The notes under the pieces are model-generated. The model did no database searches. It saw only the letters and a list, made by a program, of their open reading frames with translations, and had not been told where the DNA came from. A stretch of DNA of 50,324 bases. It comes from a virus. Taxonomy: Duplodnaviria > Heunggongvirae > Uroviricota > Caudoviricetes. A program made the position numbers and the translations under genes. Where the stretch lies: positions 1 through 50,324 of IMG/VR virus record IMGVR_UViG_2681813429_000008; one strand, given 5' to 3'. Positions within the stretch are counted from its first letter, which is position 1, and every line of letters starts with the position of its first letter. Shown here one piece after another: positions 21,750-50,324 of this stretch.

Positions 21750-21825
21750 TGGTGCTGGTTAACGGACTTGAACCGCTACCCATTCGCTTACAAGGCGACT
21801 GCTCTACCATTGGAGCTAAACCAGC
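21750..21825 (-). tRNA. tRNA with anticodon UGU (Thr-like)
   Basis: Hand-folded 76 nt cloverleaf: 7/7 bp acceptor stem (GCTGGTT/AACCAGC), D-arm GCTC/GAGC, anticodon loop CTTGTAA, T-arm with TTCAAGT loop, encoded 3' ACCA. Confidence 0.6.
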
Positions 21826-21830
21826 ATATT

Positions 21831-21905
21831 TGGCGGGACAGCGTGGACTCGAACCACGATAAGAAGGTTAACAGCCTTCCGTAATGACCTTTATACGACT
21901 GACCC
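21831..21905 (-). tRNA. tRNA-like sequence, anticodon GUU (Asn-like), degenerate
   Basis: 75 nt. Good anticodon arm (GAAGG-CTGTTAA-CCTTC) and T-arm (CGTGG-TTCGAGT-CCACG) and 3' GCCA, but acceptor stem has a T-T mismatch and D-stem only 3 bp. Confidence 0.4.
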
Positions 21906-39774: not shown

Positions 39775-39790
39775 TCTGCAGGGGACACCA
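39775..39790 (+). other. att core: copy of a tRNA-Arg (argW-like) 3' end, junction between prophage and satellite
   Basis: TCTGCAGGGGACACCA ends in an aminoacyl acceptor 3' end and matches the last ~15 nt of E. coli argW as recalled. Lies between xis and the second integrase, about 160 bp upstream of its start. Confidence 0.55.
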
Positions 39791-39950
39791 TGAACACTTC
39801 TCACTAAGTTCAATTAATTCCATAACTCACTGTTTTAACTGATATCATCTCCTTATACTCGTCCAGCAAAGTACCATTATTTCTAATGGAATCTATACAT
39901 CTTTGCGTATAACATTGTGTATAACTGAGTTCGATCTTTTTTCTATACAC

Positions 39951-41126
39951 ATGCTGCTATCTGACATCCAAATAAAAAGAGCAAAACCGAAGGACAAACC
40001 CTATACGCTTAACGATGGTATGGGGCTATCACTCCTGATCGACACAGCGGGCAGTAAAGGCTGGCGTTTTCGCTATCGCTTTGCAGGTAAGCCTAAGATG
40101 ATTTCCTTTGGCGTATATGGCGATGTGTCGTTGGCACAGGCACGTACCAAACGTGATGAAGCGCGTTCGATGTTAGCCAACGGGATAAACCCAAGTGAAG
40201 CCAGAAAAGCAGATAAGATTGCTTTGCAGTTCGCGCATGAGAACAGCTTTGAGTCTGTGGCCAGAGAATGGCACTCATCGAAAAAAGCCACCTGGTCAGA
40301 GGGTTATGCAAAAGAGGTTCTCAATTGTATGGAAAAGGATATTTTTCCTTTTATCGGCCAGCGCCCAATTGAGCAGATTGAACCATTAGAACTGCTAACC
40401 GTCCTGCAAAAAATAGAGAAAAGAGGTGCGCTAGAGCAAACCAGTAAGATCCGCCGCCGCTGTGGTGAAGTGCTTCGTTATGCTGTTGCCACTGGTAGAG
40501 CAAAGTATAATTTTGCACCCGATTTAGCTATCGCACTCAACAAACCTAAAACCCAACACTTCCCGTTCCTGACTGAAAGCGAGTTGCCCGAGTTCGTTAA
40601 TGCTCTGGATAACTATCAGGGCAGTTTAGTTACCAAATACGCCACGCAGCTGTTGATGCTAACAGGCGTGCGAACAATTGAACTACGTGCAGCGGAATGG
40701 GCTGAGTTTGATTTAGATAATGCCTTATGGGAGATCCCCAAAGAACGGATGAAGAAACGCCGCCCCCATCTGGTTCCGTTATCAACTCAGGCGATCAATA
40801 TCCTGAAAAAGCTGCAAGAAATAACAGGGAATTACAGCCTCGTTTTCCCTGGCCGGAATGACGTCAGTAAACCAATGAGCGAAGCCAGCATCAACAAAGT
40901 GATAAAACTACTGGGTTATCACGGTCGGTTAACGGGTCACGGTTTCAGGCATACCATGAGCACCATCTTGCATGAGCATGGGTTTGAAAGTGCCTGGATT
41001 GAAATGCAGCTTGCGCATGTTGATAAGAACTCTATTCGAGGTACTTACAATCATGCGCAATATATTAAAGATCGACAAGTAATGATGGAATGGTACGCTA
41101 GCTTATTAAATACGACCTGCTATTAA
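39951..41126 (+). CDS. int: Tyrosine integrase, P4 family (second copy)
   Basis: Start chosen at ATG MLLSDIQIKRAKPKDKPYTLNDG. Shares the RRCGEV.RYA..TGRAKYN.APDLA and HGFRHT motifs with the first integrase. Confidence 0.9.
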   Translation: MLLSDIQIKRAKPKDKPYTLNDGMGLSLLIDTAGSKGWRFRYRFAGKPKMISFGVYGDVSLAQARTKRDEARSMLANGINPSEARKADKIALQFAHENSFESVAREWHSSKKATWSEGYAKEVLNCMEKDIFPFIGQRPIEQIEPLELLTVLQKIEKRGALEQTSKIRRRCGEVLRYAVATGRAKYNFAPDLAIALNKPKTQHFPFLTESELPEFVNALDNYQGSLVTKYATQLLMLTGVRTIELRAAEWAEFDLDNALWEIPKERMKKRRPHLVPLSTQAINILKKLQEITGNYSLVFPGRNDVSKPMSEASINKVIKLLGYHGRLTGHGFRHTMSTILHEHGFESAWIEMQLAHVDKNSIRGTYNHAQYIKDRQVMMEWYASLLNTTCY

Positions 41127-42056
41127 ATCCAGCATGAAACAAATATGGTGAGTAATTTGATACTGTTTGTTTTTTGGCAACCCAGGGAAATGCCTTACAG
41201 TTGGTTGACTATTGTAATAATAATAGTTAAGACCAATGTTGCTGCCAAACTGGGTTGGATGTTGGGGAACAAGATTTGTAATTTGATCTGAAACATCTAA
41301 AAATTTTGCAGTAACATTTGAACTTCCTCGTTGCGTGTTGCTTGATACAAAATGACGAATCCAAACTGTATTCGCTTGTAAATTCTTGAACACCAAATGT
41401 GCGGCAACAGCAGAAGGTTGACCACCTCCAAGATCTAGTACCTGGCCAGTAATTGTATAATCGCCAAATCCTAAGTAATTTTGTCCCACGAATTGATGTG
41501 CGTGCGTGAAAAGTTCCGGCCCATTATAATCAGCATTTTTTGCTAACTTTCTAAAGTTATCGCTAATAATAATTAACTTCGACAAAGGAAGAAGAGCGCA
41601 CTGATTAGGAAGCATTTTATTATTTAAAACAACATGATAACTAATCAATTGATTTGTCGCCAACAACTGAATATCAGAGTTGGATAATGATGGATTATCA
41701 TATAGAAGTGCAACTCGTCTATTTAAGTTAGCATTCAACCAATTATTAATATCATTAATCGTTGTATTGGGCTGAATAAGATATCCAGAGATGATATTAT
41801 TTTTATTTGTTAATACACTTGATAAATTTTGATTTAAAGTTAAGACGTTATTGTGTGAAGAAAAATCTTCCTGATAAGGATTAAGGATAACAATTATGTC
41901 AGAATTCCAAACATTTAAACATGTTAATAAATTTCTCGTATTGACGTTAATTGGTTCTAAAATTGGTAGCAGACCATTTAGGCTAACTCCCTTCGCAACG
42001 AGGTCCCTAAGGCATAATAACTCTGTACTTCTCGCATACAAATATGGGCTATACAT
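41106..42056 (-). CDS. Hypothetical protein, AT-rich cargo gene B (downstream gene of a two-gene cassette)
   Basis: 316 aa, Asn/Leu-rich, coding GC far below the surrounding DNA. Its 3' end overlaps the integrase 3' end by ~21 nt. No recognised domain. Confidence 0.6.
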   Translation of the reverse strand: MYSPYLYARSTELLCLRDLVAKGVSLNGLLPILEPINVNTRNLLTCLNVWNSDIIVILNPYQEDFSSHNNVLTLNQNLSSVLTNKNNIISGYLIQPNTTINDINNWLNANLNRRVALLYDNPSLSNSDIQLLATNQLISYHVVLNNKMLPNQCALLPLSKLIIISDNFRKLAKNADYNGPELFTHAHQFVGQNYLGFGDYTITGQVLDLGGGQPSAVAAHLVFKNLQANTVWIRHFVSSNTQRGSSNVTAKFLDVSDQITNLVPQHPTQFGSNIGLNYYYYNSQPTVRHFPGLPKNKQYQITHHICFMLDLIAGRI

Positions 42057-42077
42057 AACTTACAACTCCTGAGGATA

Positions 42078-42959
42078 TCAACAAATTTTAATTTTTACAT
42101 CCATCAAATTCATGATGAATTCTTTTTGCTTTCTTGATAATGGTGTTGCATAACCTAAAACACGTAAACATGCTGGAAGAGAATAAATATAATCCAAAAA
42201 AACTTTATCGTTACATCTTTTTTTCATAGCAGAGATAAAGTATTTATTTGCTATGTTTAATGGCATCTGCATGAATATCTCTTTACAATATTCATAAACC
42301 AATCCGTTAGGCATATTTATTTTAGTTGAAGTGTAATCTTCTATTATAGCTAAGAACTCTTCCTTTCTAAGAACTGAAAACAAGCTGTCACTTTTAATAT
42401 AATCAATATTTGAATCTGCCTCCTTAATGACACTCAATTGATCTTTTTTATTCAAAACCATAACTCCCACTCTGGGGAGATTTAAAGCACAATATTTACT
42501 TGCATACTCTGGATGTGTAACTATATACACTTTATCAAAAACATCCAAATAATCAGGGGCTTGAGTAATCAACCTTTTTGGTGAATCATACTCTGTCTTA
42601 ATCTCGTAAGCTGTAGACGTACCATTAAACACCGCAACATCCACTATAGAGTTTTTAATTGGTAACTCTATGGACGACGAACTTGTTTTTGGGCTGTGCT
42701 TACCGAATATTATTTTATTGACAAGTGCTGTCTTATAAACATATTCATTTCTATAATTCAGACGCAAAAAATCATATAATGATGTAAATAAATCCCTTAG
42801 TGAAATCTCATGTTCATTATTATCATTGTTTGAAAACAGTGTTTCATAGCAGTAAGAATCAAAACTCCCAAATAAATCCGAAATATCCTTACCTTTTGCT
42901 AAGGATGAAAAAATGGGGCGACGGAAAAATTTAGCATATTCCTTTTTATTATGACTCAT
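42078..42959 (-). CDS. Hypothetical protein, AT-rich cargo gene A; possible PD-(D/E)xK nuclease-like motif
   Basis: 293 aa. Motif IVDVAVFNGTSTAYEIKTEYD has the hydrophobic-D ... E-x-K spacing of restriction-endonuclease-like folds. 21 nt upstream of gene B. Confidence 0.6.
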   Translation of the reverse strand: MSHNKKEYAKFFRRPIFSSLAKGKDISDLFGSFDSYCYETLFSNNDNNEHEISLRDLFTSLYDFLRLNYRNEYVYKTALVNKIIFGKHSPKTSSSSIELPIKNSIVDVAVFNGTSTAYEIKTEYDSPKRLITQAPDYLDVFDKVYIVTHPEYASKYCALNLPRVGVMVLNKKDQLSVIKEADSNIDYIKSDSLFSVLRKEEFLAIIEDYTSTKINMPNGLVYEYCKEIFMQMPLNIANKYFISAMKKRCNDKVFLDYIYSLPACLRVLGYATPLSRKQKEFIMNLMDVKIKIC

Positions 42960-43638
42960 TACTCATACTCTATAAACATCATGCAATTTGATAAGTTATG
43001 ACGAATTCTCACCATCCAGTTACTACCTGTACATACTAATCAAAAAAAACGAGTACGCAAGATACGAAAGTACTTTTCTTGTTCACCAGTTAGCTTACCT
43101 TGATCCTCACCAGCGACTGGAAGATAGGTAGCAGTATATGTGGAAACCTTCCCCTAGCTAGGTCTACAAACGTAGTTTGGGCATTTAGGCTCCACGATTC
43201 ACGGTTTGACACGGCCTGATATCTGCACATTCGTTTTGATATGCAGCAATCGTGAAAAAGGAAAATATACGCTCGACAGACCAAAACGGCACTACACCGC
43301 ACCCGCCTGCGGTTTTCATATCACTAAAAATTTTCAGCCTGGATTTTTTACAAACGATACCGCCAGTCCGTGCCAGTCCTCGAGATGTACTGCGATACAG
43401 GAACTGAAAAGAATGAAAAGAAATTCATTTTTTTTCAGTTTTACTGTCCGTCGAATCTATGGCCTGAATACGCAACTCTATGATATTAAATGGATAATTA
43501 ATTTTAGGTGTGTGATTTTATGAAGGTTTGTGAAACATGAAGAAGATAACCAGTTGAAAAATAATAATTTTATGACCGTATAAACTGAAATCCTGTGTTC
43601 AGGTTCCGGGAACAGATCGGCCATTCCCGACGCATACT

Positions 43639-43911
43639 TTACCCATTCTTTTGCGCAGCCAGCAGCAACTTTAAAGCCTTTTCCCGTTCCTCGGGTGGAA
43701 TTGCATCAATCAGCTCTTTAACCCTTCCCTGCCCGTTCAGCGCGCTTGGACTAACGGAATGGGAGAAAGCAACATTCATCACAAACGAGTGACCGCACTC
43801 CACATTAGAGCAATAGCAGTACACATCGTACAGTTGTGGGTGTTTCCTGTTTGTTTTACCTATCCGTGCTACTGCCTGACATGTGGGGCAGTACATTCTC
43901 ATCATCTTCAT
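43639..43911 (-). CDS. ogr: Ogr/Delta-family zinc-finger late-gene activator
   Basis: 90 aa with CPTC...C.C...C.H zinc-finger pattern (MRMYCPTCQAVARIGKTNRKHPQLYDVYCYCSNVECGHSF) characteristic of P2 Ogr / P4 Delta. Confidence 0.85.
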   Translation of the reverse strand: MKMMRMYCPTCQAVARIGKTNRKHPQLYDVYCYCSNVECGHSFVMNVAFSHSVSPSALNGQGRVKELIDAIPPEEREKALKLLLAAQKNG

Positions 43912-43979
43912 CGTTCTGTGCCCTATACTGTTGCCCGCCAGAAGAAGGGATTTGGATCCCTACCTCTTGTTCTGAACGT

Positions 43980-44170
43980 GTAACACTGGTAACACGTGTA
44001 ACGCTATTGATTTAAAAGGATTTAATCTGTTACCAGTTAGCAAAATCAAGAGGTAACGCGTGGTAACACACCATTTTTTGTTACCTCTGTTACCAGTCAG
44101 TATTTTTGACTGGTAACACTGAAGAACCGCATCAGTAACGGGTGTTACCTCTGTTACCAGTGTTACCTCA
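43980..44170. repeat. Iteron array (GGTAACAC / GTGTTACC heptamer-octamers, about 12 copies): putative satellite origin
   Basis: Repeated GGTAAC(A/G)C and complementary GTTACC motifs in both orientations between ogr and the primase gene. Resembles the P4 ori/crr octamer TGTTCACC as recalled. Confidence 0.7.
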
Positions 44171-44193
44171 TAAAAATAAGACTCACGCGATAA

Positions 44194-46881
44194 TCACTCA
44201 GGTTCAGCGCTTCCCAGTACCTGTGTATTGAACTGGTACACACGTTTAAGCCCTATTTCTGGCAGGCGAATGCTGTTTTGCGTCCGGCCATCTTCACCGG
44301 GTTTCAGCCAGCCCGCGTCCACACACAACCTGGCCACCTTACGCGAGTCAAATCCCTTACAGATCTCCTTCCAGCCTGACGGGAGAACGTAGAACGTCAC
44401 AACCGGCTCTGTCACGTTGTCTCCTTTATCGACTTTTCTGAATCCCATCATTGAAACAGGCCGGTTCCTGTCGTCATTCCAGTCAGCAAACCGACTGAAC
44501 TGATTACGCGTCATGAAGTCCCGAACCTGTTCAAGTGCCGCTTTATCTTCCTGATTAGCTGTATGGCCCCGGTCAGCCATCCATGCAGCCAGACAGCTTT
44601 GAGCGGCACGAAAGGCCTCTCCCTCCGGCCATCCTGTGATGCCCGCTTTTGTGGCCAGCTCCCCGGCCATCGCAACCAGAGCAAAACGGGTAACAGCCCG
44701 GCCAACCTGATTCCCGGCATTTTCCGGCGTCAGCCTTCGGGTATACTCTTTCAATAAGGCTTTCGCCTGACTGGTCAGTTCCGGCAGATCAGCGGTCAGG
44801 CAATACAGCCAGTCGCGGAATGGTGCACCATGATAATGCGCTACGTGCTGCTCAAGATGCTCAGCCAGGGTTTTCCCGCTACTGAAGCCATGAAGTTCTT
44901 CAAACACGCCATACTTGCCCGAATCGCTTGGGATCTGGATCATTCTGACCTCAACCCCGGCATACGTACGTTCCCCGGCGCTTGCCGCATGCTCTACCAG
45001 TGACAGTTCCCCGGTAGACAGAAACAACAGATTCCAGCGGTTGGTTTCCCTTACCGAACCATCTGTTCTGGCTCTGGCTTTGCCCTGCCCGTTAGCCAGC
45101 ATATAAGCGATATTTCCCGCCTCCCTGCCGTCAACCTCCCGGATTTCATCCAGCATCAGCGTGGCATCATTGCGGCGGCTCGCCGTTCCTTCTAAGGCAT
45201 TCCCCGTCGCCCGCCACGTATGCCAGAAATCTGTTCCACCACATACTGATGCAGCCACTTTCATCGTCGTGGTTTTACCGTCTGTGGATTCCCCTTTGAG
45301 GTGATAACCTCCACCGCCGATACCAACCAGTTTCAGAAGGGGGGCAGCAAATGCCAGACTCACCGCAAAGGCAAGACGGGCATTCTTTATGCAATAACGG
45401 CCTATATTTTCACGCCAGCCCTCTGATGTGCCGCTGACACGAAAATCACGCCCCTGCACACTCGATGTTTGTAAGATGACTGACTGGGCTTCGCGCCCTA
45501 TCACTTCATCCTGGAGAACGTAAACCCCGCCGTGCCAGCCAGTTTTATTCACACAGGTTACTTTTCTGTCCGGTTTACACAGCGAGATATATTCCATCAG
45601 GAATGCTCTGGCCATGCCGTTAATGTTGATGTAAGAAAGCCCGTTAACCAGCAGAACGCGGCGCAGTTCTTCCCCGCTACCGCCCAGCATCTCCATCGGC
45701 ATTGCCCATTTACGGCTGTTTCCGTTGGTATCTTCCCATTCCAGCAAACGCCCGTAATTACTTCCATCAGCATCACTGGTGATTGCCGTCACCCGCAACG
45801 GACTGCAAATTTTGATATTACGTATCTCTGTATCACCATCAGACTTATTAACCAGCTTGTCGTACCACAAATATTCTTTTGTCAGCCGGAACCCTTCTGG
45901 TAAACGGGTCTGCCCTTTGCCATGCAGCGTCATTTCTTCACGAAAGGCATCTCTCGCCCGTTCTTTCCCCACTTCCTGCCGATAATCATCCCAGTCAGCC
46001 TTATGGCGTACCGGAGGGAGCGTTACCCAGCCATCCACCGCTTTGGCGGCTTTCTCTGCCTGAATACGCCCGGTGTTTTCTTTGCCGTCAGCCAGATCAT
46101 TATCTCCGGCCAGAATGATCCGGGTTTCCGGCCAGCGTTTTCGGATCTGCTCCGTCACCTTCAGTAAATTGGTGGCAGCGACAGCCGCCACGATCCATCC
46201 TTCAGTCAGCAGACTGACGGTAAGCGCCGTGGCAAAACCCTCAGTGATAATCACCTGTTCAGGTGTTTCAGCGGGTATATCGGTCAGGGCAATGAATGCG
46301 CCAGACAGCTGGCTACCGGGCAGCAGACTTTTATCCCCGTCAGGATTGATAAGCTGGCCACCAGTAATATTCCCGGAAATATCCGTCAAAGGCAGCAGTA
46401 ATGAACCGGTGGAAAATGTTATTCCGGCCAGATTCAAAGGCTGTGACAGCAAGGGAAGTGAATACCCGTGTAAGCTCTTATTTGTCAGATAGACCGGCTC
46501 ACCATTGCAGGACTGCTGTCTGAGTCTGGTATATCGCTCCGCGCCCGCTTCTTTTCCTGCGGCCTTTTTCCTGGCTGGCAATGCGGGCTTCTCCTGTATT
46601 TCTGGTAATGCAAGCGCCTCAGATACCATCCCGGCGACTTCTTTTATCTTTCTTCCTGTCACCAGACGAACCAGATCAAGACCATCGCCATGACCGCACT
46701 GATTACAAAACCACGTCCCTCGCCCCGCTTTATCGTCCAGTCGAAAACGATCTTTTCCACCACAGGCAGGGCAAGCCCCATGATGTCCTGCGGACGGTAC
46801 TTTAATACCTAATGCTGACAGGATATAAGGCCAGCGCCCAATTGCAGCTCCGGAAATCGTGGATACAGACGGTGTTTTCAC
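44194..46881 (-). CDS. P4 alpha-type primase-helicase
   Basis: 895 aa. N-terminal zinc-binding primase region (CPACGG...CNQCGHGDGLDLV), central Toprim-like region, C-terminal P-loop NTPase (KGESTDGKTT). Confidence 0.85.
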   Translation of the reverse strand: MKTPSVSTISGAAIGRWPYILSALGIKVPSAGHHGACPACGGKDRFRLDDKAGRGTWFCNQCGHGDGLDLVRLVTGRKIKEVAGMVSEALALPEIQEKPALPARKKAAGKEAGAERYTRLRQQSCNGEPVYLTNKSLHGYSLPLLSQPLNLAGITFSTGSLLLPLTDISGNITGGQLINPDGDKSLLPGSQLSGAFIALTDIPAETPEQVIITEGFATALTVSLLTEGWIVAAVAATNLLKVTEQIRKRWPETRIILAGDNDLADGKENTGRIQAEKAAKAVDGWVTLPPVRHKADWDDYRQEVGKERARDAFREEMTLHGKGQTRLPEGFRLTKEYLWYDKLVNKSDGDTEIRNIKICSPLRVTAITSDADGSNYGRLLEWEDTNGNSRKWAMPMEMLGGSGEELRRVLLVNGLSYININGMARAFLMEYISLCKPDRKVTCVNKTGWHGGVYVLQDEVIGREAQSVILQTSSVQGRDFRVSGTSEGWRENIGRYCIKNARLAFAVSLAFAAPLLKLVGIGGGGYHLKGESTDGKTTTMKVAASVCGGTDFWHTWRATGNALEGTASRRNDATLMLDEIREVDGREAGNIAYMLANGQGKARARTDGSVRETNRWNLLFLSTGELSLVEHAASAGERTYAGVEVRMIQIPSDSGKYGVFEELHGFSSGKTLAEHLEQHVAHYHGAPFRDWLYCLTADLPELTSQAKALLKEYTRRLTPENAGNQVGRAVTRFALVAMAGELATKAGITGWPEGEAFRAAQSCLAAWMADRGHTANQEDKAALEQVRDFMTRNQFSRFADWNDDRNRPVSMMGFRKVDKGDNVTEPVVTFYVLPSGWKEICKGFDSRKVARLCVDAGWLKPGEDGRTQNSIRLPEIGLKRVYQFNTQVLGSAEPE

Positions 46882-47288
46882 AGCAGCACCTCCTGACCTT
46901 CCGGCTTCACAAATTCAAAACCTTCGGGTAGTTCGCCATCAGGTGCTCCGAAAATAATATCCCGGTAAACCTCACGCATCTCTGTGACACCAAAAACTGA
47001 CAGGCGAATATTTTCTGACATAAAGCCTGGTTTAAGCATTTTTTCCAGTTTCTCTGCGGCCAGTATGCAACCAGCATCAGCCCCAAACTCATTCACCCAC
47101 GGCATTTCAATATGGTAAATAATATTACTCACCACTTTTTCGTGGGAGAGTTCTATTCGTTCGCCATCTTCAATATAAACAGGTTCATTATGAACACGCA
47201 CCATTAAGGAAATGAATGCATCAGCAATGTAGTAGCGTAAGACTGCTGTTCGTAAAGCATGCGCCTTTAAATTTTGATTATTATTCAT
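46878..47288 (-). CDS. Hypothetical satellite protein
   Basis: 136 aa ORF overlapping the primase start by 4 nt. Confidence 0.5.
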   Translation of the reverse strand: MNNNQNLKAHALRTAVLRYYIADAFISLMVRVHNEPVYIEDGERIELSHEKVVSNIIYHIEMPWVNEFGADAGCILAAEKLEKMLKPGFMSENIRLSVFGVTEMREVYRDIIFGAPDGELPEGFEFVKPEGQEVLL

Positions 47289-47517
47289 CGCGCATCACTC
47301 CCTTAATTGTGCTGGTTTCCTTAACAACGCCATCCAGTTGTTCGGCAATACAGGCCACTAAAGCCGCAGCGCCTTCCGCTGAAACAGTTCTCGCTCCATT
47401 CACTGTGGGCACGGACAAGACCTCTGCAAGAAACTCACTGGCCAGTGCCGCCCGTAACAGACGACTCTCCCCCTGTTCACTCAATATGCAGCCTTGCTTA
47501 AAATTCATGGATTTCAT
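47281..47517 (-). CDS. Hypothetical satellite protein
   Basis: 78 aa ORF, translationally coupled to its neighbours. Confidence 0.45.
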   Translation of the reverse strand: MKSMNFKQGCILSEQGESRLLRAALASEFLAEVLSVPTVNGARTVSAEGAAALVACIAEQLDGVVKETSTIKGVMRDE

Positions 47518-47717
47518 GCAACCACCTCCCCGGCTCTTTTCACAGGGATACGGGCAGCAAAGCTCAGGATAAATTCAGTGGCAAGTTTAAGGCGTGCAGC
47601 ATGCTCGCATTCTGCGATTACACGCACAGGGCGTGGACGGGCATCACGGTCTGTACGGCGGACAGCCAGAAAGACAAAGGTAAATTCAGGGTGAGATAAA
47701 GCAGGGACTGTAGCCAT
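47514..47717 (-). CDS. Hypothetical small protein
   Basis: Only the last 67 codons of the 196-codon track ORF look genuine: internal ATG (MATVPALSHPEF...) preceded by AAGGAGG at ideal spacing. Confidence 0.45.
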   Translation of the reverse strand: MATVPALSHPEFTFVFLAVRRTDRDARPRPVRVIAECEHAARLKLATEFILSFAARIPVKRAGEVVA

Positions 47718-48149
47718 AATGGCAACCTCCTTCAGATAGCGGGTAACGCTACCACCGGAGTTCCTACGCTCATGGGTGGTAGCCCAGACGGGGGTAGGAA
47801 TACCGGCTCTGAAGGATACCGGCCAGCCCGAAAGCTGCCCCGCCTGGACTACCATAATTCTGATGATGTGGCGTAAAAAATAAAAAAATACAATCAGCCA
47901 CCACACCATAAATTTTAGGTGAGTCAAAGCTGCGACACAAAAAAACACGCCTAGCGCGTGTAGTATCGCCTTCAGATAACACGGGTTCCTACGCCCGGCT
48001 GCCGATTTTGCGGCAACCTTTAAACTATATCCCGCGCATTCCTGGTGAGGCAAGAAATTTATAACCGAAAACTGATCATTGCCTGGATTAATTAACGCTG
48101 GCATGCTTAAGCCTCTGCTTAAAAATAGTTCTTCATTTTTCCTGATGCT

Positions 48150-48182
48150 GTAAACGAGACCCGCCTCTGAGCGGGTCTTTCT
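48150..48182. terminator. Intrinsic terminator (GACCCGC-TCTGA-GCGGGTC)
   Basis: Perfect 7-bp stem with T-rich flank, immediately downstream of the capsid-homolog gene stop. Confidence 0.55.
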
Positions 48183-48191
48183 GTCGCTAAG

Positions 48192-49196
48192 TCAATCCGC
48201 AAACGTCAGGGTGCACTCATCAACAGCCGCGTACAGTTCAGGTTCACCGAGTGCATAACCTTCATTGCGCAGGTAGGAATGCACGTATTCACTGCTTTCA
48301 TCATCAAACTCAGCACGAAACCAGCGTGTTATCGCCTGAGTGTAAATATGCAGATTATCCAGCGTCGTTACTGCCAGACGCTTACCCGGCATAAACGGGG
48401 GAATAAACGCAAAGCGGCCAGCAACAGAACTTGTAGCCATCTGTGCCGCATTCACATCAGACGGGCGGTCTGCGGCATTAAATAACTTCAGGCGTTGATG
48501 TGCTGCCAGCTCTGCCCCAACCAGTACAACCAGACGAGGATCTTCACGAAACTGCTCAGCAATAAGCTCTGTAATCAGATGGTTGGCCAGAGCATCAATA
48601 TTTTTCCAGGTGCCAGTCTCTCCCAGAGTGACAGGCTCAGAGATGATTTGCTTTCCGTTCCCGTAGGCTTTCGCCAGTGCATGCCAGCCAATATTGACAT
48701 CCTCGCCTTTTTTATTGATTTCCGGGTTTGTAGTATTTGCAATCGACACACCGTTGAAACCGACCCGCAGCATGTCCAGCGCATATGCCTGGGCAAAAAA
48801 GCTCTCAACCGTTTTCTCAAACTCATCCGGCACGCCGGTATGGTAAATATGAGACATATCGGAATAGCTGATCCGGGCGCAGGTATCCGTCTCTGTCAGA
48901 AAGAACTCCGTACCATTGATTGCCATTTTTTTGTGGAAACGGCCACCATCCACACGTCCGGTATACAGTTCACTGGCACCAATATTGACGGCATTACCTG
49001 ACACGGCGTTAACATCACGTAGGGTAATATTTTTAATAAGCCACCCGGATTCCAGAATTGAGGTACGCAGTATATTTTCAGTAGGTTCGCTTAATGCAAA
49101 GCGTCTGTTTGATTCTTCCTGATAGTTAGTGCCAGTGACGAATTTATTATGATAACGACGTGCTGCGTCCGGCCTTTCAGTTTTGAAGGCATACAT
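48192..49196 (-). CDS. P2 GpN-family major capsid protein homolog
   Basis: 334 aa, colinear with P2 GpN as recalled (e.g. LRVGFNGV..., EDPRLVVLVGAELAA..., LDNLHIY...). No database search was run. Confidence 0.6.
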   Translation of the reverse strand: MYAFKTERPDAARRYHNKFVTGTNYQEESNRRFALSEPTENILRTSILESGWLIKNITLRDVNAVSGNAVNIGASELYTGRVDGGRFHKKMAINGTEFFLTETDTCARISYSDMSHIYHTGVPDEFEKTVESFFAQAYALDMLRVGFNGVSIANTTNPEINKKGEDVNIGWHALAKAYGNGKQIISEPVTLGETGTWKNIDALANHLITELIAEQFREDPRLVVLVGAELAAHQRLKLFNAADRPSDVNAAQMATSSVAGRFAFIPPFMPGKRLAVTTLDNLHIYTQAITRWFRAEFDDESSEYVHSYLRNEGYALGEPELYAAVDECTLTFAD

Positions 49197-49218
49197 AGTT
49201 TTTCACCTTTTTAAGTAT

Positions 49219-50079
49219 TTAAGAAAAGATTTTATTTTTGTACTCAGTAACCAGATTGTATTTCATTACATGCTCAACATAATCCCGGTCACTTACGACT
49301 GAACGTAATACATAATTATCTGCTCGATAGTACTCCCTGTAAGCCATAGCTCTTGCCATTCCACCGTTATTTAATACATAACGATCAGTTGGAACGCTAC
49401 AACGACTAATAATTTCACTCACGGAATCAGATAAAGACTTGAGTGCATCAGTAATAAATTTAATATCACGGACAACGTCACTGTCATTAAATACAGAAAT
49501 AAAATCAGCAGGGATCTGGCCGGATTGAGGAAATATATTCAGTAAACGCTTATCGATTCCCTTCCCAATGTAGTTTCCTTCATCGGCCAGTACTCCCGGC
49601 AAAAGCTTGATCGTGCTCAATCGACTATGTTGTTCATTCAACCGGGAAACAGCCAGATGGTAATACCGTTCAGCATCCGCTCGTTCAGCATGCCCCATTT
49701 TATTCGTTTTGGCTTCAGCAATGCTACTGACGCCGTTTTTTGAGAATGTGCTTTTCCATGCAACTTCCGCATTTGTCACTTCACGCTGCCGGAAAGATAA
49801 CTCTTCCTCTTCCTGACGACACAACTGGGCATAACGGCTCAGGAGCAGGTTGATCTCATTCGCCACAGTTTCCGTATCAGGTACTGTTAACCCCGTAAGT
49901 GAATACAGCTTTTCACCTTTAGCTCGCAGCTTATTCAGTGAATATATTTCAATAATACGCACAATACAGGCCGTGTCGCTATGAGTCTCTTTAAATGATC
50001 TTACTTTGTAACTATCTAACACCGACACATGTTCGTTCTTAATTGATGCCAATTTCTTCTTAAAAACATTGTCAACCAT
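49219..50079 (-). CDS. Hypothetical protein upstream of the capsid homolog
   Basis: 286 aa, moderately AT-rich. Size matches P2 GpO but no sequence similarity was recognised. Confidence 0.5.
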   Translation of the reverse strand: MVDNVFKKKLASIKNEHVSVLDSYKVRSFKETHSDTACIVRIIEIYSLNKLRAKGEKLYSLTGLTVPDTETVANEINLLLSRYAQLCRQEEEELSFRQREVTNAEVAWKSTFSKNGVSSIAEAKTNKMGHAERADAERYYHLAVSRLNEQHSRLSTIKLLPGVLADEGNYIGKGIDKRLLNIFPQSGQIPADFISVFNDSDVVRDIKFITDALKSLSDSVSEIISRCSVPTDRYVLNNGGMARAMAYREYYRADNYVLRSVVSDRDYVEHVMKYNLVTEYKNKIFS

Positions 50080-50096
50080 ATATTTGCCACCTCAAT

Positions 50097-50324
50097 TTAG
50101 GAGTTTAATTTTCTATTGAGAATATTCTTCTCTATCCATTCATTAACTTCATGCTCCACCCATGCAACAGAACGAGAACCGATAGAAACTTGGTTCGGAA
50201 ATTCATCATTCTTTATCTTTAGATAAATTGTTGACTTGGGTAAGCCAGTCAAATTAATCACTTCTGATATTCTCAGAAGTCTATATCTTTTTTGGGGTGC
50301 GTTTTCCCGAGGCAATAAGCTCAT
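50097..50324 (-). CDS. alpA: AlpA-family transcriptional regulator
   Basis: 75 aa; YRLLRISEVINLTGLPKSTIYLKIKNDEFP...VAWVEHEVNEWI is the canonical AlpA winged helix. ORF starts at the window edge, so the true start may lie beyond. Confidence 0.8.
   Translation of the reverse strand: MSLLPRENAPQKRYRLLRISEVINLTGLPKSTIYLKIKNDEFPNQVSIGSRSVAWVEHEVNEWIEKNILNRKLNS

Follow-up and report, generated by a model that had tools for sequence, protein, structure and literature searches.

The closest described relative of the locus considered here is the gop-beta-cII system of P4 (DefenseFinder Gop_beta_cll; Rousset 2022). It confers protection from lambda and P1; the Gop protein is toxic unless Beta is present, and gop and beta of P4 act like a toxin-antitoxin pair (PMC9122126). 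Cell killing by the system is set off by the phage gene orf184 (bioRxiv 10.1101/2023.04.06.535777). A second point of reference is PD-lambda-2, whose Beta-family component PD-lambda-2C is dispensable for toxin neutralisation but required for defence; in the same study, a relative of P4 Beta is named 'antitoxin' (Vassallo 2022; PMC9519451). Here we analysed 50,324 nucleotides of Caudoviricetes DNA (IMG/VR record IMGVR_UViG_2681813429_000008, positions 1 to 50,324), referred to as the window, and in it an AT-rich two-gene cassette located beside the integrase gene of a satellite element. Gene 1 encodes a protein of the sce7726 family, which includes P4 cII, and gene 2 a protein of the sce7725 family. 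We consider it fairly probable, on grounds of sequence, that the cassette is a two-gene, co-directional relative of gop-beta-cII without Gop, an anti-phage module in which a beta-like partner controls a nuclease effector. The initial annotation, made from the sequence of the window alone, had proposed an uncharacterised anti-phage system. This holds insofar as we found no functional study of it; however, the cassette is not a categorically new system, as both its genes have homologs among the three of the validated gop-beta-cII.

The two genes are co-oriented, 21 nt apart, and encode products of 293 and then 316 aa, exactly as first described. An AGGAG Shine-Dalgarno sequence is located 9 nt ahead of the gene 2 ATG, and together with the short spacer it gives the arrangement of a predicted operon. 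The observation that GC content falls far below that of the surroundings was also borne out: it is 0.324 for the cassette (GC3 0.27; 0.306 for the sce7726 gene and 0.340 for the sce7725 gene) as opposed to 0.479 for the remaining satellite, with 0.463 in int, 0.480 in ogr and 0.533 in the primase gene. Upstream of gene 1 we found no convincing sigma-70 promoter, the scan giving one weak site that overlaps the start codon. The cassette's own promoter is presumably held by the non-coding segment 42960-43282.

The assignment of the gene 1 product is supported by several searches. It passes the NCBIfam model sce7726 (NF033832) with 175.6 bits against a cutoff of 70 (E 9.6e-52, residues 70-249), it is matched by the PADLOC model PDLC02989 'cll', a component of gop-beta-cII (E 1.2e-18), and BLASTP aligns it with P4 cII over the core (E 9e-11). 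It is assigned to phrog_984, and the RefSeq label for P4 cII is itself 'sce7726 family protein'. Three regions can be distinguished in the protein: ~70 N-terminal aa that have no counterpart in P4 cII, the nuclease core, which takes up approximately residues 70-170, and a C-terminal part that is helical. The initial annotation had pointed out a motif with the spacing of a PD-(D/E)xK nuclease core. In a family alignment of 31 sequences, including P4 cII and the Salmonella homolog, D107, E119 and K121 of this motif are invariant. The same is true of N112, D125, R129 and Q133, and E98 is conserved as well. Since the three residues are invariant even in P4 cII, we regard the call as sound: the gene 1 product is a predicted member of the PD-(D/E)xK superfamily, with D107 followed by E119-I-K121 as the putative triad. 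This agrees with the HHpred placement of P4 cII among MmcB-like PD-(D/E)xK proteins at 99.8% probability (Rousset 2022, Table S3). The sce7726 profile found no solved relative among PDB sequences, and neither cassette protein had a match in a local copy of Pfam.

The gene 2 product had been described as having no recognisable domain. It is, however, a clear member of NCBIfam sce7725 (NF033831; 242.2 bits, cutoff 60, E 1.1e-71, residues 2-311) and is assigned to phrog_34524. The family counts 802 representatives at 50% clustering (E <= 1e-3), nearly all of which have a single domain and 305-320 aa. Among 111 diverse members there is no variation at N59, N174, D199, H235, S238, K297 and H304 and next to none at E12, E34, H220 and H303, a pattern typical of an enzyme. 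The strand-helix periodicity read off the alignment suggests an alpha/beta protein, possibly TIM-barrel-like. As to its origin, BLASTP between the gene 2 product and P4 Beta is not significant, and the link is visible to profile methods only. The Pfam family Beta_protein (PF14350) is matched below threshold by 11 of 39 sce7725 members, and no other family recurs. Comparison of the sce7725 and Beta-family alignments by hhalign gave 87% (E 3.8e-6), rising to 92% (E 5.8e-7, 282 columns) with the deeper alignment of 111 sequences; the aligned regions include an N-terminal YxPxLxxRxxE motif and a GD motif. P4 Beta in turn matches the PD-Lambda-2_C models (E 8e-14), which a single one of the 39 sce7725 members matches, at only E 0.0025. 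Taken at the level of a superfamily, these results point to sce7725 being a remote homolog of P4 Beta. The profiles of sce7725 and Beta found no solved relatives among PDB sequences. PADLOC, which the initial annotation had recommended for this locus, recognises one half of the pair: 'cll' matches the gene 1 product, whereas 'beta' does not match the gene 2 product. As PADLOC 2.0 has no model for the latter, it is unlikely to call the cassette.

To what extent do the two genes belong together? A profile scan restricted to one genome per species yielded 18 sce7725 loci in Gamma- and Betaproteobacteria. In every locus with the upstream region present (17/17), sce7726 is found directly upstream of sce7725, on the same strand and in tight order, and the pairwise identities of the two proteins are correlated (r = 0.91, 120 locus pairs). 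The co-occurrence elsewhere that the initial annotation had wanted checked is therefore clear. Low GC content also travels with the pair: of 15 other loci, 14 have a pair of lower GC than the flanks and one a pair of equal GC. A third gene is not conserved, since the one that follows downstream is convergent in 12 of 17 loci; same-strand neighbours occur occasionally (RES, unknown proteins, RmrA) but are not conserved, and a third component was rejected.

A similar picture is obtained from the side of Beta. Scanning viral contigs with the Beta alignment gave 38 loci, in 36 of which a gene of the cII/sce7726 family is immediately adjacent and convergent to Beta, as in P4. The sce7726 hidden Markov model (HMM) includes P4 cII, so these Beta-adjacent matches arise partly by construction; the PADLOC and BLASTP links between the gene 1 product and cII are independent of the HMM. 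A small Gop-like ORF with two transmembrane segments (2-TM) and a coiled coil precedes Beta in ~28 of the viral loci and is absent in at least seven, namely the Gop-less Beta + cII prophage loci from IMG/VR (L050, L053-L056, L059 and L061). A Gop-family HMM built from 19 sequences matched neither the window nor any of the 18 sce7725 loci; the Beta loci, which served as positive control, gave 27 matches. We thus observe three architectures with one two-protein core: gop>beta> <cII in P4, beta> <cII in the Gop-less prophages and sce7726>sce7725 in the window. The predicted nuclease together with the beta-like protein is accordingly the conserved core.

The pair is not confined to satellites, as Salmonella has it in an ICE-like island and Burkholderiales and Xanthomonadales have it in chromosomal islands. 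Outside E. coli its neighbours include P4-type integrases, TIR proteins, KwaB, an AspBHI-like restriction enzyme, a Schlafen-type helicase, HipA and RosmerTA RmrA. In Morganella psychrotolerans (L004, 3626-10190) we observed a layout like that of the window at ~61% protein identity, the order being a large primase-like ORF, a small ORF, sce7726, sce7725 and a convergent P4-type integrase. Because this layout matches the window, the association of cassette and satellite is older than the E. coli lineage. Two other loci deserve separate mention. In Salmonella houtenae (L003, 13799-14824), the stop codon of the sce7725 homolog is overlapped by a gene combining HEPN/RES-NTD1 and RES domains; the locus, in the ICE-like island, is possibly a variant of three genes to which an NAD-targeting toxin has been added. 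In a Rugamonas metagenome-assembled genome (L019, 9312-10592), the pair is followed immediately by a RosmerTA RmrA-like gene (Xre-HTH + M78 peptidase). We rejected the possibility that L019 carries PD-lambda-2-like A/B genes, since the neighbour is RosmerTA RmrA, a separate system. It is a case of defence-island clustering and stands outside the system.

The genomic position of the cassette is informative as well. The defence hotspot of P4 has been defined as the interval from psu to int (Rousset 2022; PMC9122126). No psu or sid was annotated or detected in the satellite of the window (PGAP, PHROGs), so hotspot status could be assigned only by analogy until sibling satellites were compared. 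We therefore compared E. coli satellites that have the same backbone (95-97% identical) and the same flanks. In the slot occupied by the cassette, strain 32F4 has RT + SLATT, AH04 has KwaA + KwaB (Kiwa), SC455 has a reverse transcriptase of the retron Ec48 family with a membrane effector, BR1220 has a Shedu nuclease with a hypothetical protein and MEW has a Sll1717-family P-loop ATPase. As the same flanks enclose different, mostly defence, cargo, the slot between int and ogr is an exchangeable defence-cargo hotspot. The initial annotation was thus right in placing the cassette between the integrase and the ogr/delta gene and in expecting exchangeable defence cargo there, but the established hotspot that it invoked is psu-int, which this satellite without psu and sid does not have. 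A survey based on psu would have missed it for the same reason, and the cassette accessions are not listed in the accessible part of the supplementary tables of Rousset 2022.

The left edge of the exchangeable segment is at ~41070-41100, within the final ~30-60 nt of int. With the recombination boundary inside the last int codons, the C-terminal tail of the integrase varies with the cargo. The 3' end of int overlaps gene 2 convergently by 21 nt; a similar convergent overlap, of ~20 nt, is seen between the cargo gene and int in 32F4 (L022, 8108-8127). The right edge is sharp at ~43283, the match with AH04 beginning at window position 43278, and the segment takes in ~320 nt upstream of gene 1. 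A GC-rich hairpin (43286-43313) lies inside the conserved right-flank backbone, terminator-like sites being listed by the scan. An element of ~170 nt that includes this hairpin (43273-43443) also stands alone, unannotated and at 76-79% identity, in other E. coli (hits H61-H63 and H135-H137). A cos site at the right boundary of the slot was considered and rejected, there being no match to P2/P4 cos.

The carrier occupies the end of the window. Positions 1-39775 are a CUS-3/Sf6/P22-like prophage, in tandem with the satellite at argW, and the junction is the 3' end of tRNA-Arg (CTGCAGGGGACACCA); genes for tRNA-Thr and tRNA-Asn are found in the prophage at 21750-21905. The satellite spans 39776-50324 and continues beyond the window end. 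PGAP and PHROGs identify a P4-type integrase, an alpha-type primase, an Ogr/Delta-like activator and an AlpA-like HTH protein. The Rfam C4 antisense RNA (47772-47859, 81 bits) and isrK (47940-48017, 69 bits) are above gathering, and c4-a1b1 (47978-48030) reaches 43.8 bits, just under its gathering score of 46.7 bits. In addition, a major head gene of the P2 family is present at 48192-49196. Judging by its genes, the carrier is a P4-family satellite, as first suggested, although not a canonical psu-int P4 but a capsid-encoding variant without psu and sid. Two further ORFs may be noted. The 'Icd-like cell division inhibitor' called by PGAP (47514-48104, minus strand) overlaps the C4 and isrK RNA genes, so that the RNA immunity region and a protein-coding call share the same DNA. 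A hypothetical ORF of 286 aa (49219-50079, minus strand), flanked by the head gene and the AlpA-like gene, is without a match in PHROGs. Coordinates of the cassette and its slot are collected in Table 1.

Table 1. Features of the cassette, its slot and the attachment site, in window coordinates
Feature	Positions	Strand	Length	Description or source
Gene 1	42078-42959	-	293 aa	sce7726-family (P4 cII-like) predicted PD-(D/E)xK nuclease
Gene 2	41106-42056	-	316 aa	sce7725-family, putative remote homolog of P4 Beta and PD-lambda-2C
Intergenic spacer	42057-42077	-	21 nt	contains the gene 2 AGGAG Shine-Dalgarno
Integrase, P4-type tyrosine	39951-41126	+		PGAP on identical locus; phrog_1 integrase
Ogr/Delta-like zinc-finger activator, right flank of slot	43639-43911	-		PGAP; phrog_603
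Upstream non-coding part of exchangeable module	42960-43282	-		region absent from sibling satellites
Exchangeable segment	41100-43282		~2.2 kb	alignments with RT+SLATT and Kiwa satellites
Conserved backbone beside slot	43283-43638			near-identical in 3 satellites with differing cargo
Putative catalytic motif I105-D125 (IVDVAVFNGTSTAYEIKTEYD)	42585-42647	-		residues 105-125 of the 293-aa protein
att core, tRNA-Arg (argW) 3' end	39776-39790	+		alignment with SK1144 argW-int region

Based on these data, the following scheme can be proposed. The PD-(D/E)xK nuclease encoded by gene 1 would be a latent effector, and the beta-like protein encoded by gene 2, possibly an enzyme, would be the phage-sensing or activating partner that controls it. 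A phage cue at infection would act via the beta-like protein to release nuclease activity on DNA, and the nuclease would halt the phage either directly or by abortive infection. The host of the satellite would thereby be shielded from competing phages. We infer the cassette's part in phage defence as well as the sensor and effector roles and the substrate of the nuclease. Proteins of the Beta superfamily occur with varied toxic partners, which are Gop, HigB/Xre-peptidase, the nuclease in the cassette and sometimes RES too. A constant module paired with varying effectors is what one would expect to see of a sensor or activator.

Natural variation in E. coli allows the scheme to be set against a classical toxin-antitoxin or addiction module, in which a constitutive nuclease toxin would be held by a beta-like antitoxin (or vice versa), serving mainly to keep the satellite stably in the chromosome. 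The behaviour of gop and beta in P4 (PMC9122126), the 'antitoxin' label given to the P4 Beta relative (Vassallo 2022) and a tight two-gene operon on mobile elements would all be in keeping with such a module, which the initial annotation had also mentioned. However, in the viable isolate THO-015 (L062) an IS1 splits sce7725 while sce7726 is intact, and in another, FXCREC145 (L067), an IS1 truncates the 3' end of sce7726, which is uncoupled from an intact sce7725. Neither gene thus acts as an indispensable antitoxin, although each disruption is a single case and suppressors are possible. A third isolate, AVS0155 (L063), has an IS1 between int and sce7725, which brings the independent IS1 insertions in or beside the cassette to three. 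Viable knockouts fit a latent system better than an addictive one. Furthermore, the two proteins, each ~300 aa long and with numerous polar positions that are invariant, do not resemble small labile antitoxins, PD-lambda-2C is not needed to neutralise its toxin, and sibling satellites persist with wholly different cargo. We therefore consider an addiction module unlikely.

The isolate THO-015 also bears on a second alternative, that of a restriction-modification-like system. Here host DNA or nucleotides would be marked or altered by a beta-like enzyme, and DNA without (or with) the mark would be cut by the nuclease. A PD-(D/E)xK nuclease paired with a partner that has enzyme-like invariant residues brings such a system to mind, the more so as restriction-modification systems of Types II and III are common P4 hotspot cargo (PMC9122126). 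Yet the loss of sce7725 next to an intact nuclease is tolerated, which is unexpected for a protective modifier, and no methyltransferase or known DNA-modification domain was found in Pfam, NCBIfam or PADLOC. In addition, a single phage protein suffices to trigger gop-beta-cII, and the cell is killed, which is the logic of abortive infection and not that of marking self against non-self. Restriction-modification is, in our view, quite improbable. Least probable of all is a role in the satellite life cycle (lysogeny or regulation) or in MmcB-like DNA repair instead of defence, to which the historical P4 gene name cII and the HHpred grouping with the MmcB-like family could point, because the region is non-essential in P4 (PMC9122126), known defence systems replace the cassette in otherwise near-identical satellites, and the pair is also present in islands outside satellites.

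We return to the preferred reading of a nuclease effector under the control of a beta-like partner. The cassette is present in 425 of 5,426 complete E. coli genomes, always chromosomal and at least 95% identical, where PGAP names its products sce7726/sce7725; several of these genomes are labelled O25b:H4-ST131. The satellite backbone is found in 446 genomes, 422 of which are at least 99% identical and carry the cassette, so the high prevalence is largely clonal. This is the first of several points that weigh against the reading: with 422 of 425 copies at >=99% identity the E. coli cassette is nearly clonal, and its prevalence may reflect lineage expansion (many ST131) and not selection. Second, the link between sce7725 and Beta is remote, at 15-18% identity, and the gene 2 product itself matches neither Pfam PF14350 nor the PADLOC 'beta' model. 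Third, the single-sequence AlphaFold models of the gene 1 and gene 2 products both have a pLDDT of 36, and their folds therefore stay predicted from sequence. Fourth, the only toxin demonstrated in P4 is Gop, which is missing from the cassette, and the role of cII in P4 defence has never been separated out. Moreover, the two roles could be the other way round, the nuclease being the sensor and the beta-like protein the effector, and the promoter scan identified none for the cassette. Finally, no experimental study of the cassette or of any sce7726-sce7725 pair was found in the searchable literature; the two family names and the RefSeq accessions came up there only in genome annotations, if at all.

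It is tempting to go one step further and regard the nuclease and beta-like pair as the minimal ancestral core of a large and widespread defence superfamily, to which sce7725 contributes 802 clusters at 50% identity and the Beta family, with gop-beta-cII and PD-lambda-2C, still more, and in which the beta-like proteins would be an unrecognised class of phage-sensing enzymes and Gop, RES and HigB/Xre-peptidase would be bolt-on effectors. This broader idea is quite possible, if short of probable. If it is true, the cassette would be an autonomous two-gene anti-phage system carried by ~8% of the complete genomes of E. coli, of which many are ST131. Accounts of the validated gop-beta-cII system usually present a toxin-antitoxin pair of gop and beta, to which an unexplained cII is added. 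The present analysis moves the focus to the pair of a cII-family nuclease and a beta-like protein, kept across hundreds of lineages, with Gop being optional. The Gop-less two-gene version would offer the simplest setting for finding out what Beta-superfamily proteins sense or catalyse and how the nuclease is controlled, and PD-lambda-2 poses the same question about the role of the superfamily. Being common in clinically important E. coli, the cassette could also affect phage-therapy host range. Independently of this, a second type of P4-family satellite, capsid-encoding and without psu and sid, is documented here with a defence hotspot of its own.

How, then, does the cassette relate to what has been described? 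In gop-beta-cII, as in the cassette, a cII/sce7726 nuclease adjoins a partner of the Beta superfamily, and both are AT-rich cargo beside the integrase of a P4-family satellite. The differences are equally clear. The cassette lacks the Gop membrane protein; its genes are co-directional with the nuclease first, whereas in gop>beta> <cII the nuclease gene is convergent; its partner is an sce7725 protein with ~15-18% identity to Beta; and its nuclease has the additional N-terminal region of ~70 aa. The Gop-less Beta + cII prophage pairs have the two-protein core without Gop, as the cassette does, but they contain Beta proper, are convergent and lie beside CI/LexA-like repressor genes. In PD-lambda-2 (Vassallo 2022), the Beta-family component C suggests for the superfamily the same sensor or activator role that we propose for the cassette, although it is accompanied there by a HigB-like protein and an Xre-HTH/M78 peptidase and not by a PD-(D/E)xK nuclease. 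Shedu, Kiwa and retron Ec48 share the identical slot on the same backbone, whereas in PADLOC they show no sequence relationship to the cassette proteins; Shedu is, nonetheless, a PD-(D/E)xK nuclease-based system too. Finally, the cassette proteins are clear members of NCBIfam sce7725 and sce7726, families that are names without an assigned function, and to this existing NCBIfam/PGAP annotation the link between sce7725 and Beta and the defence context are additions.

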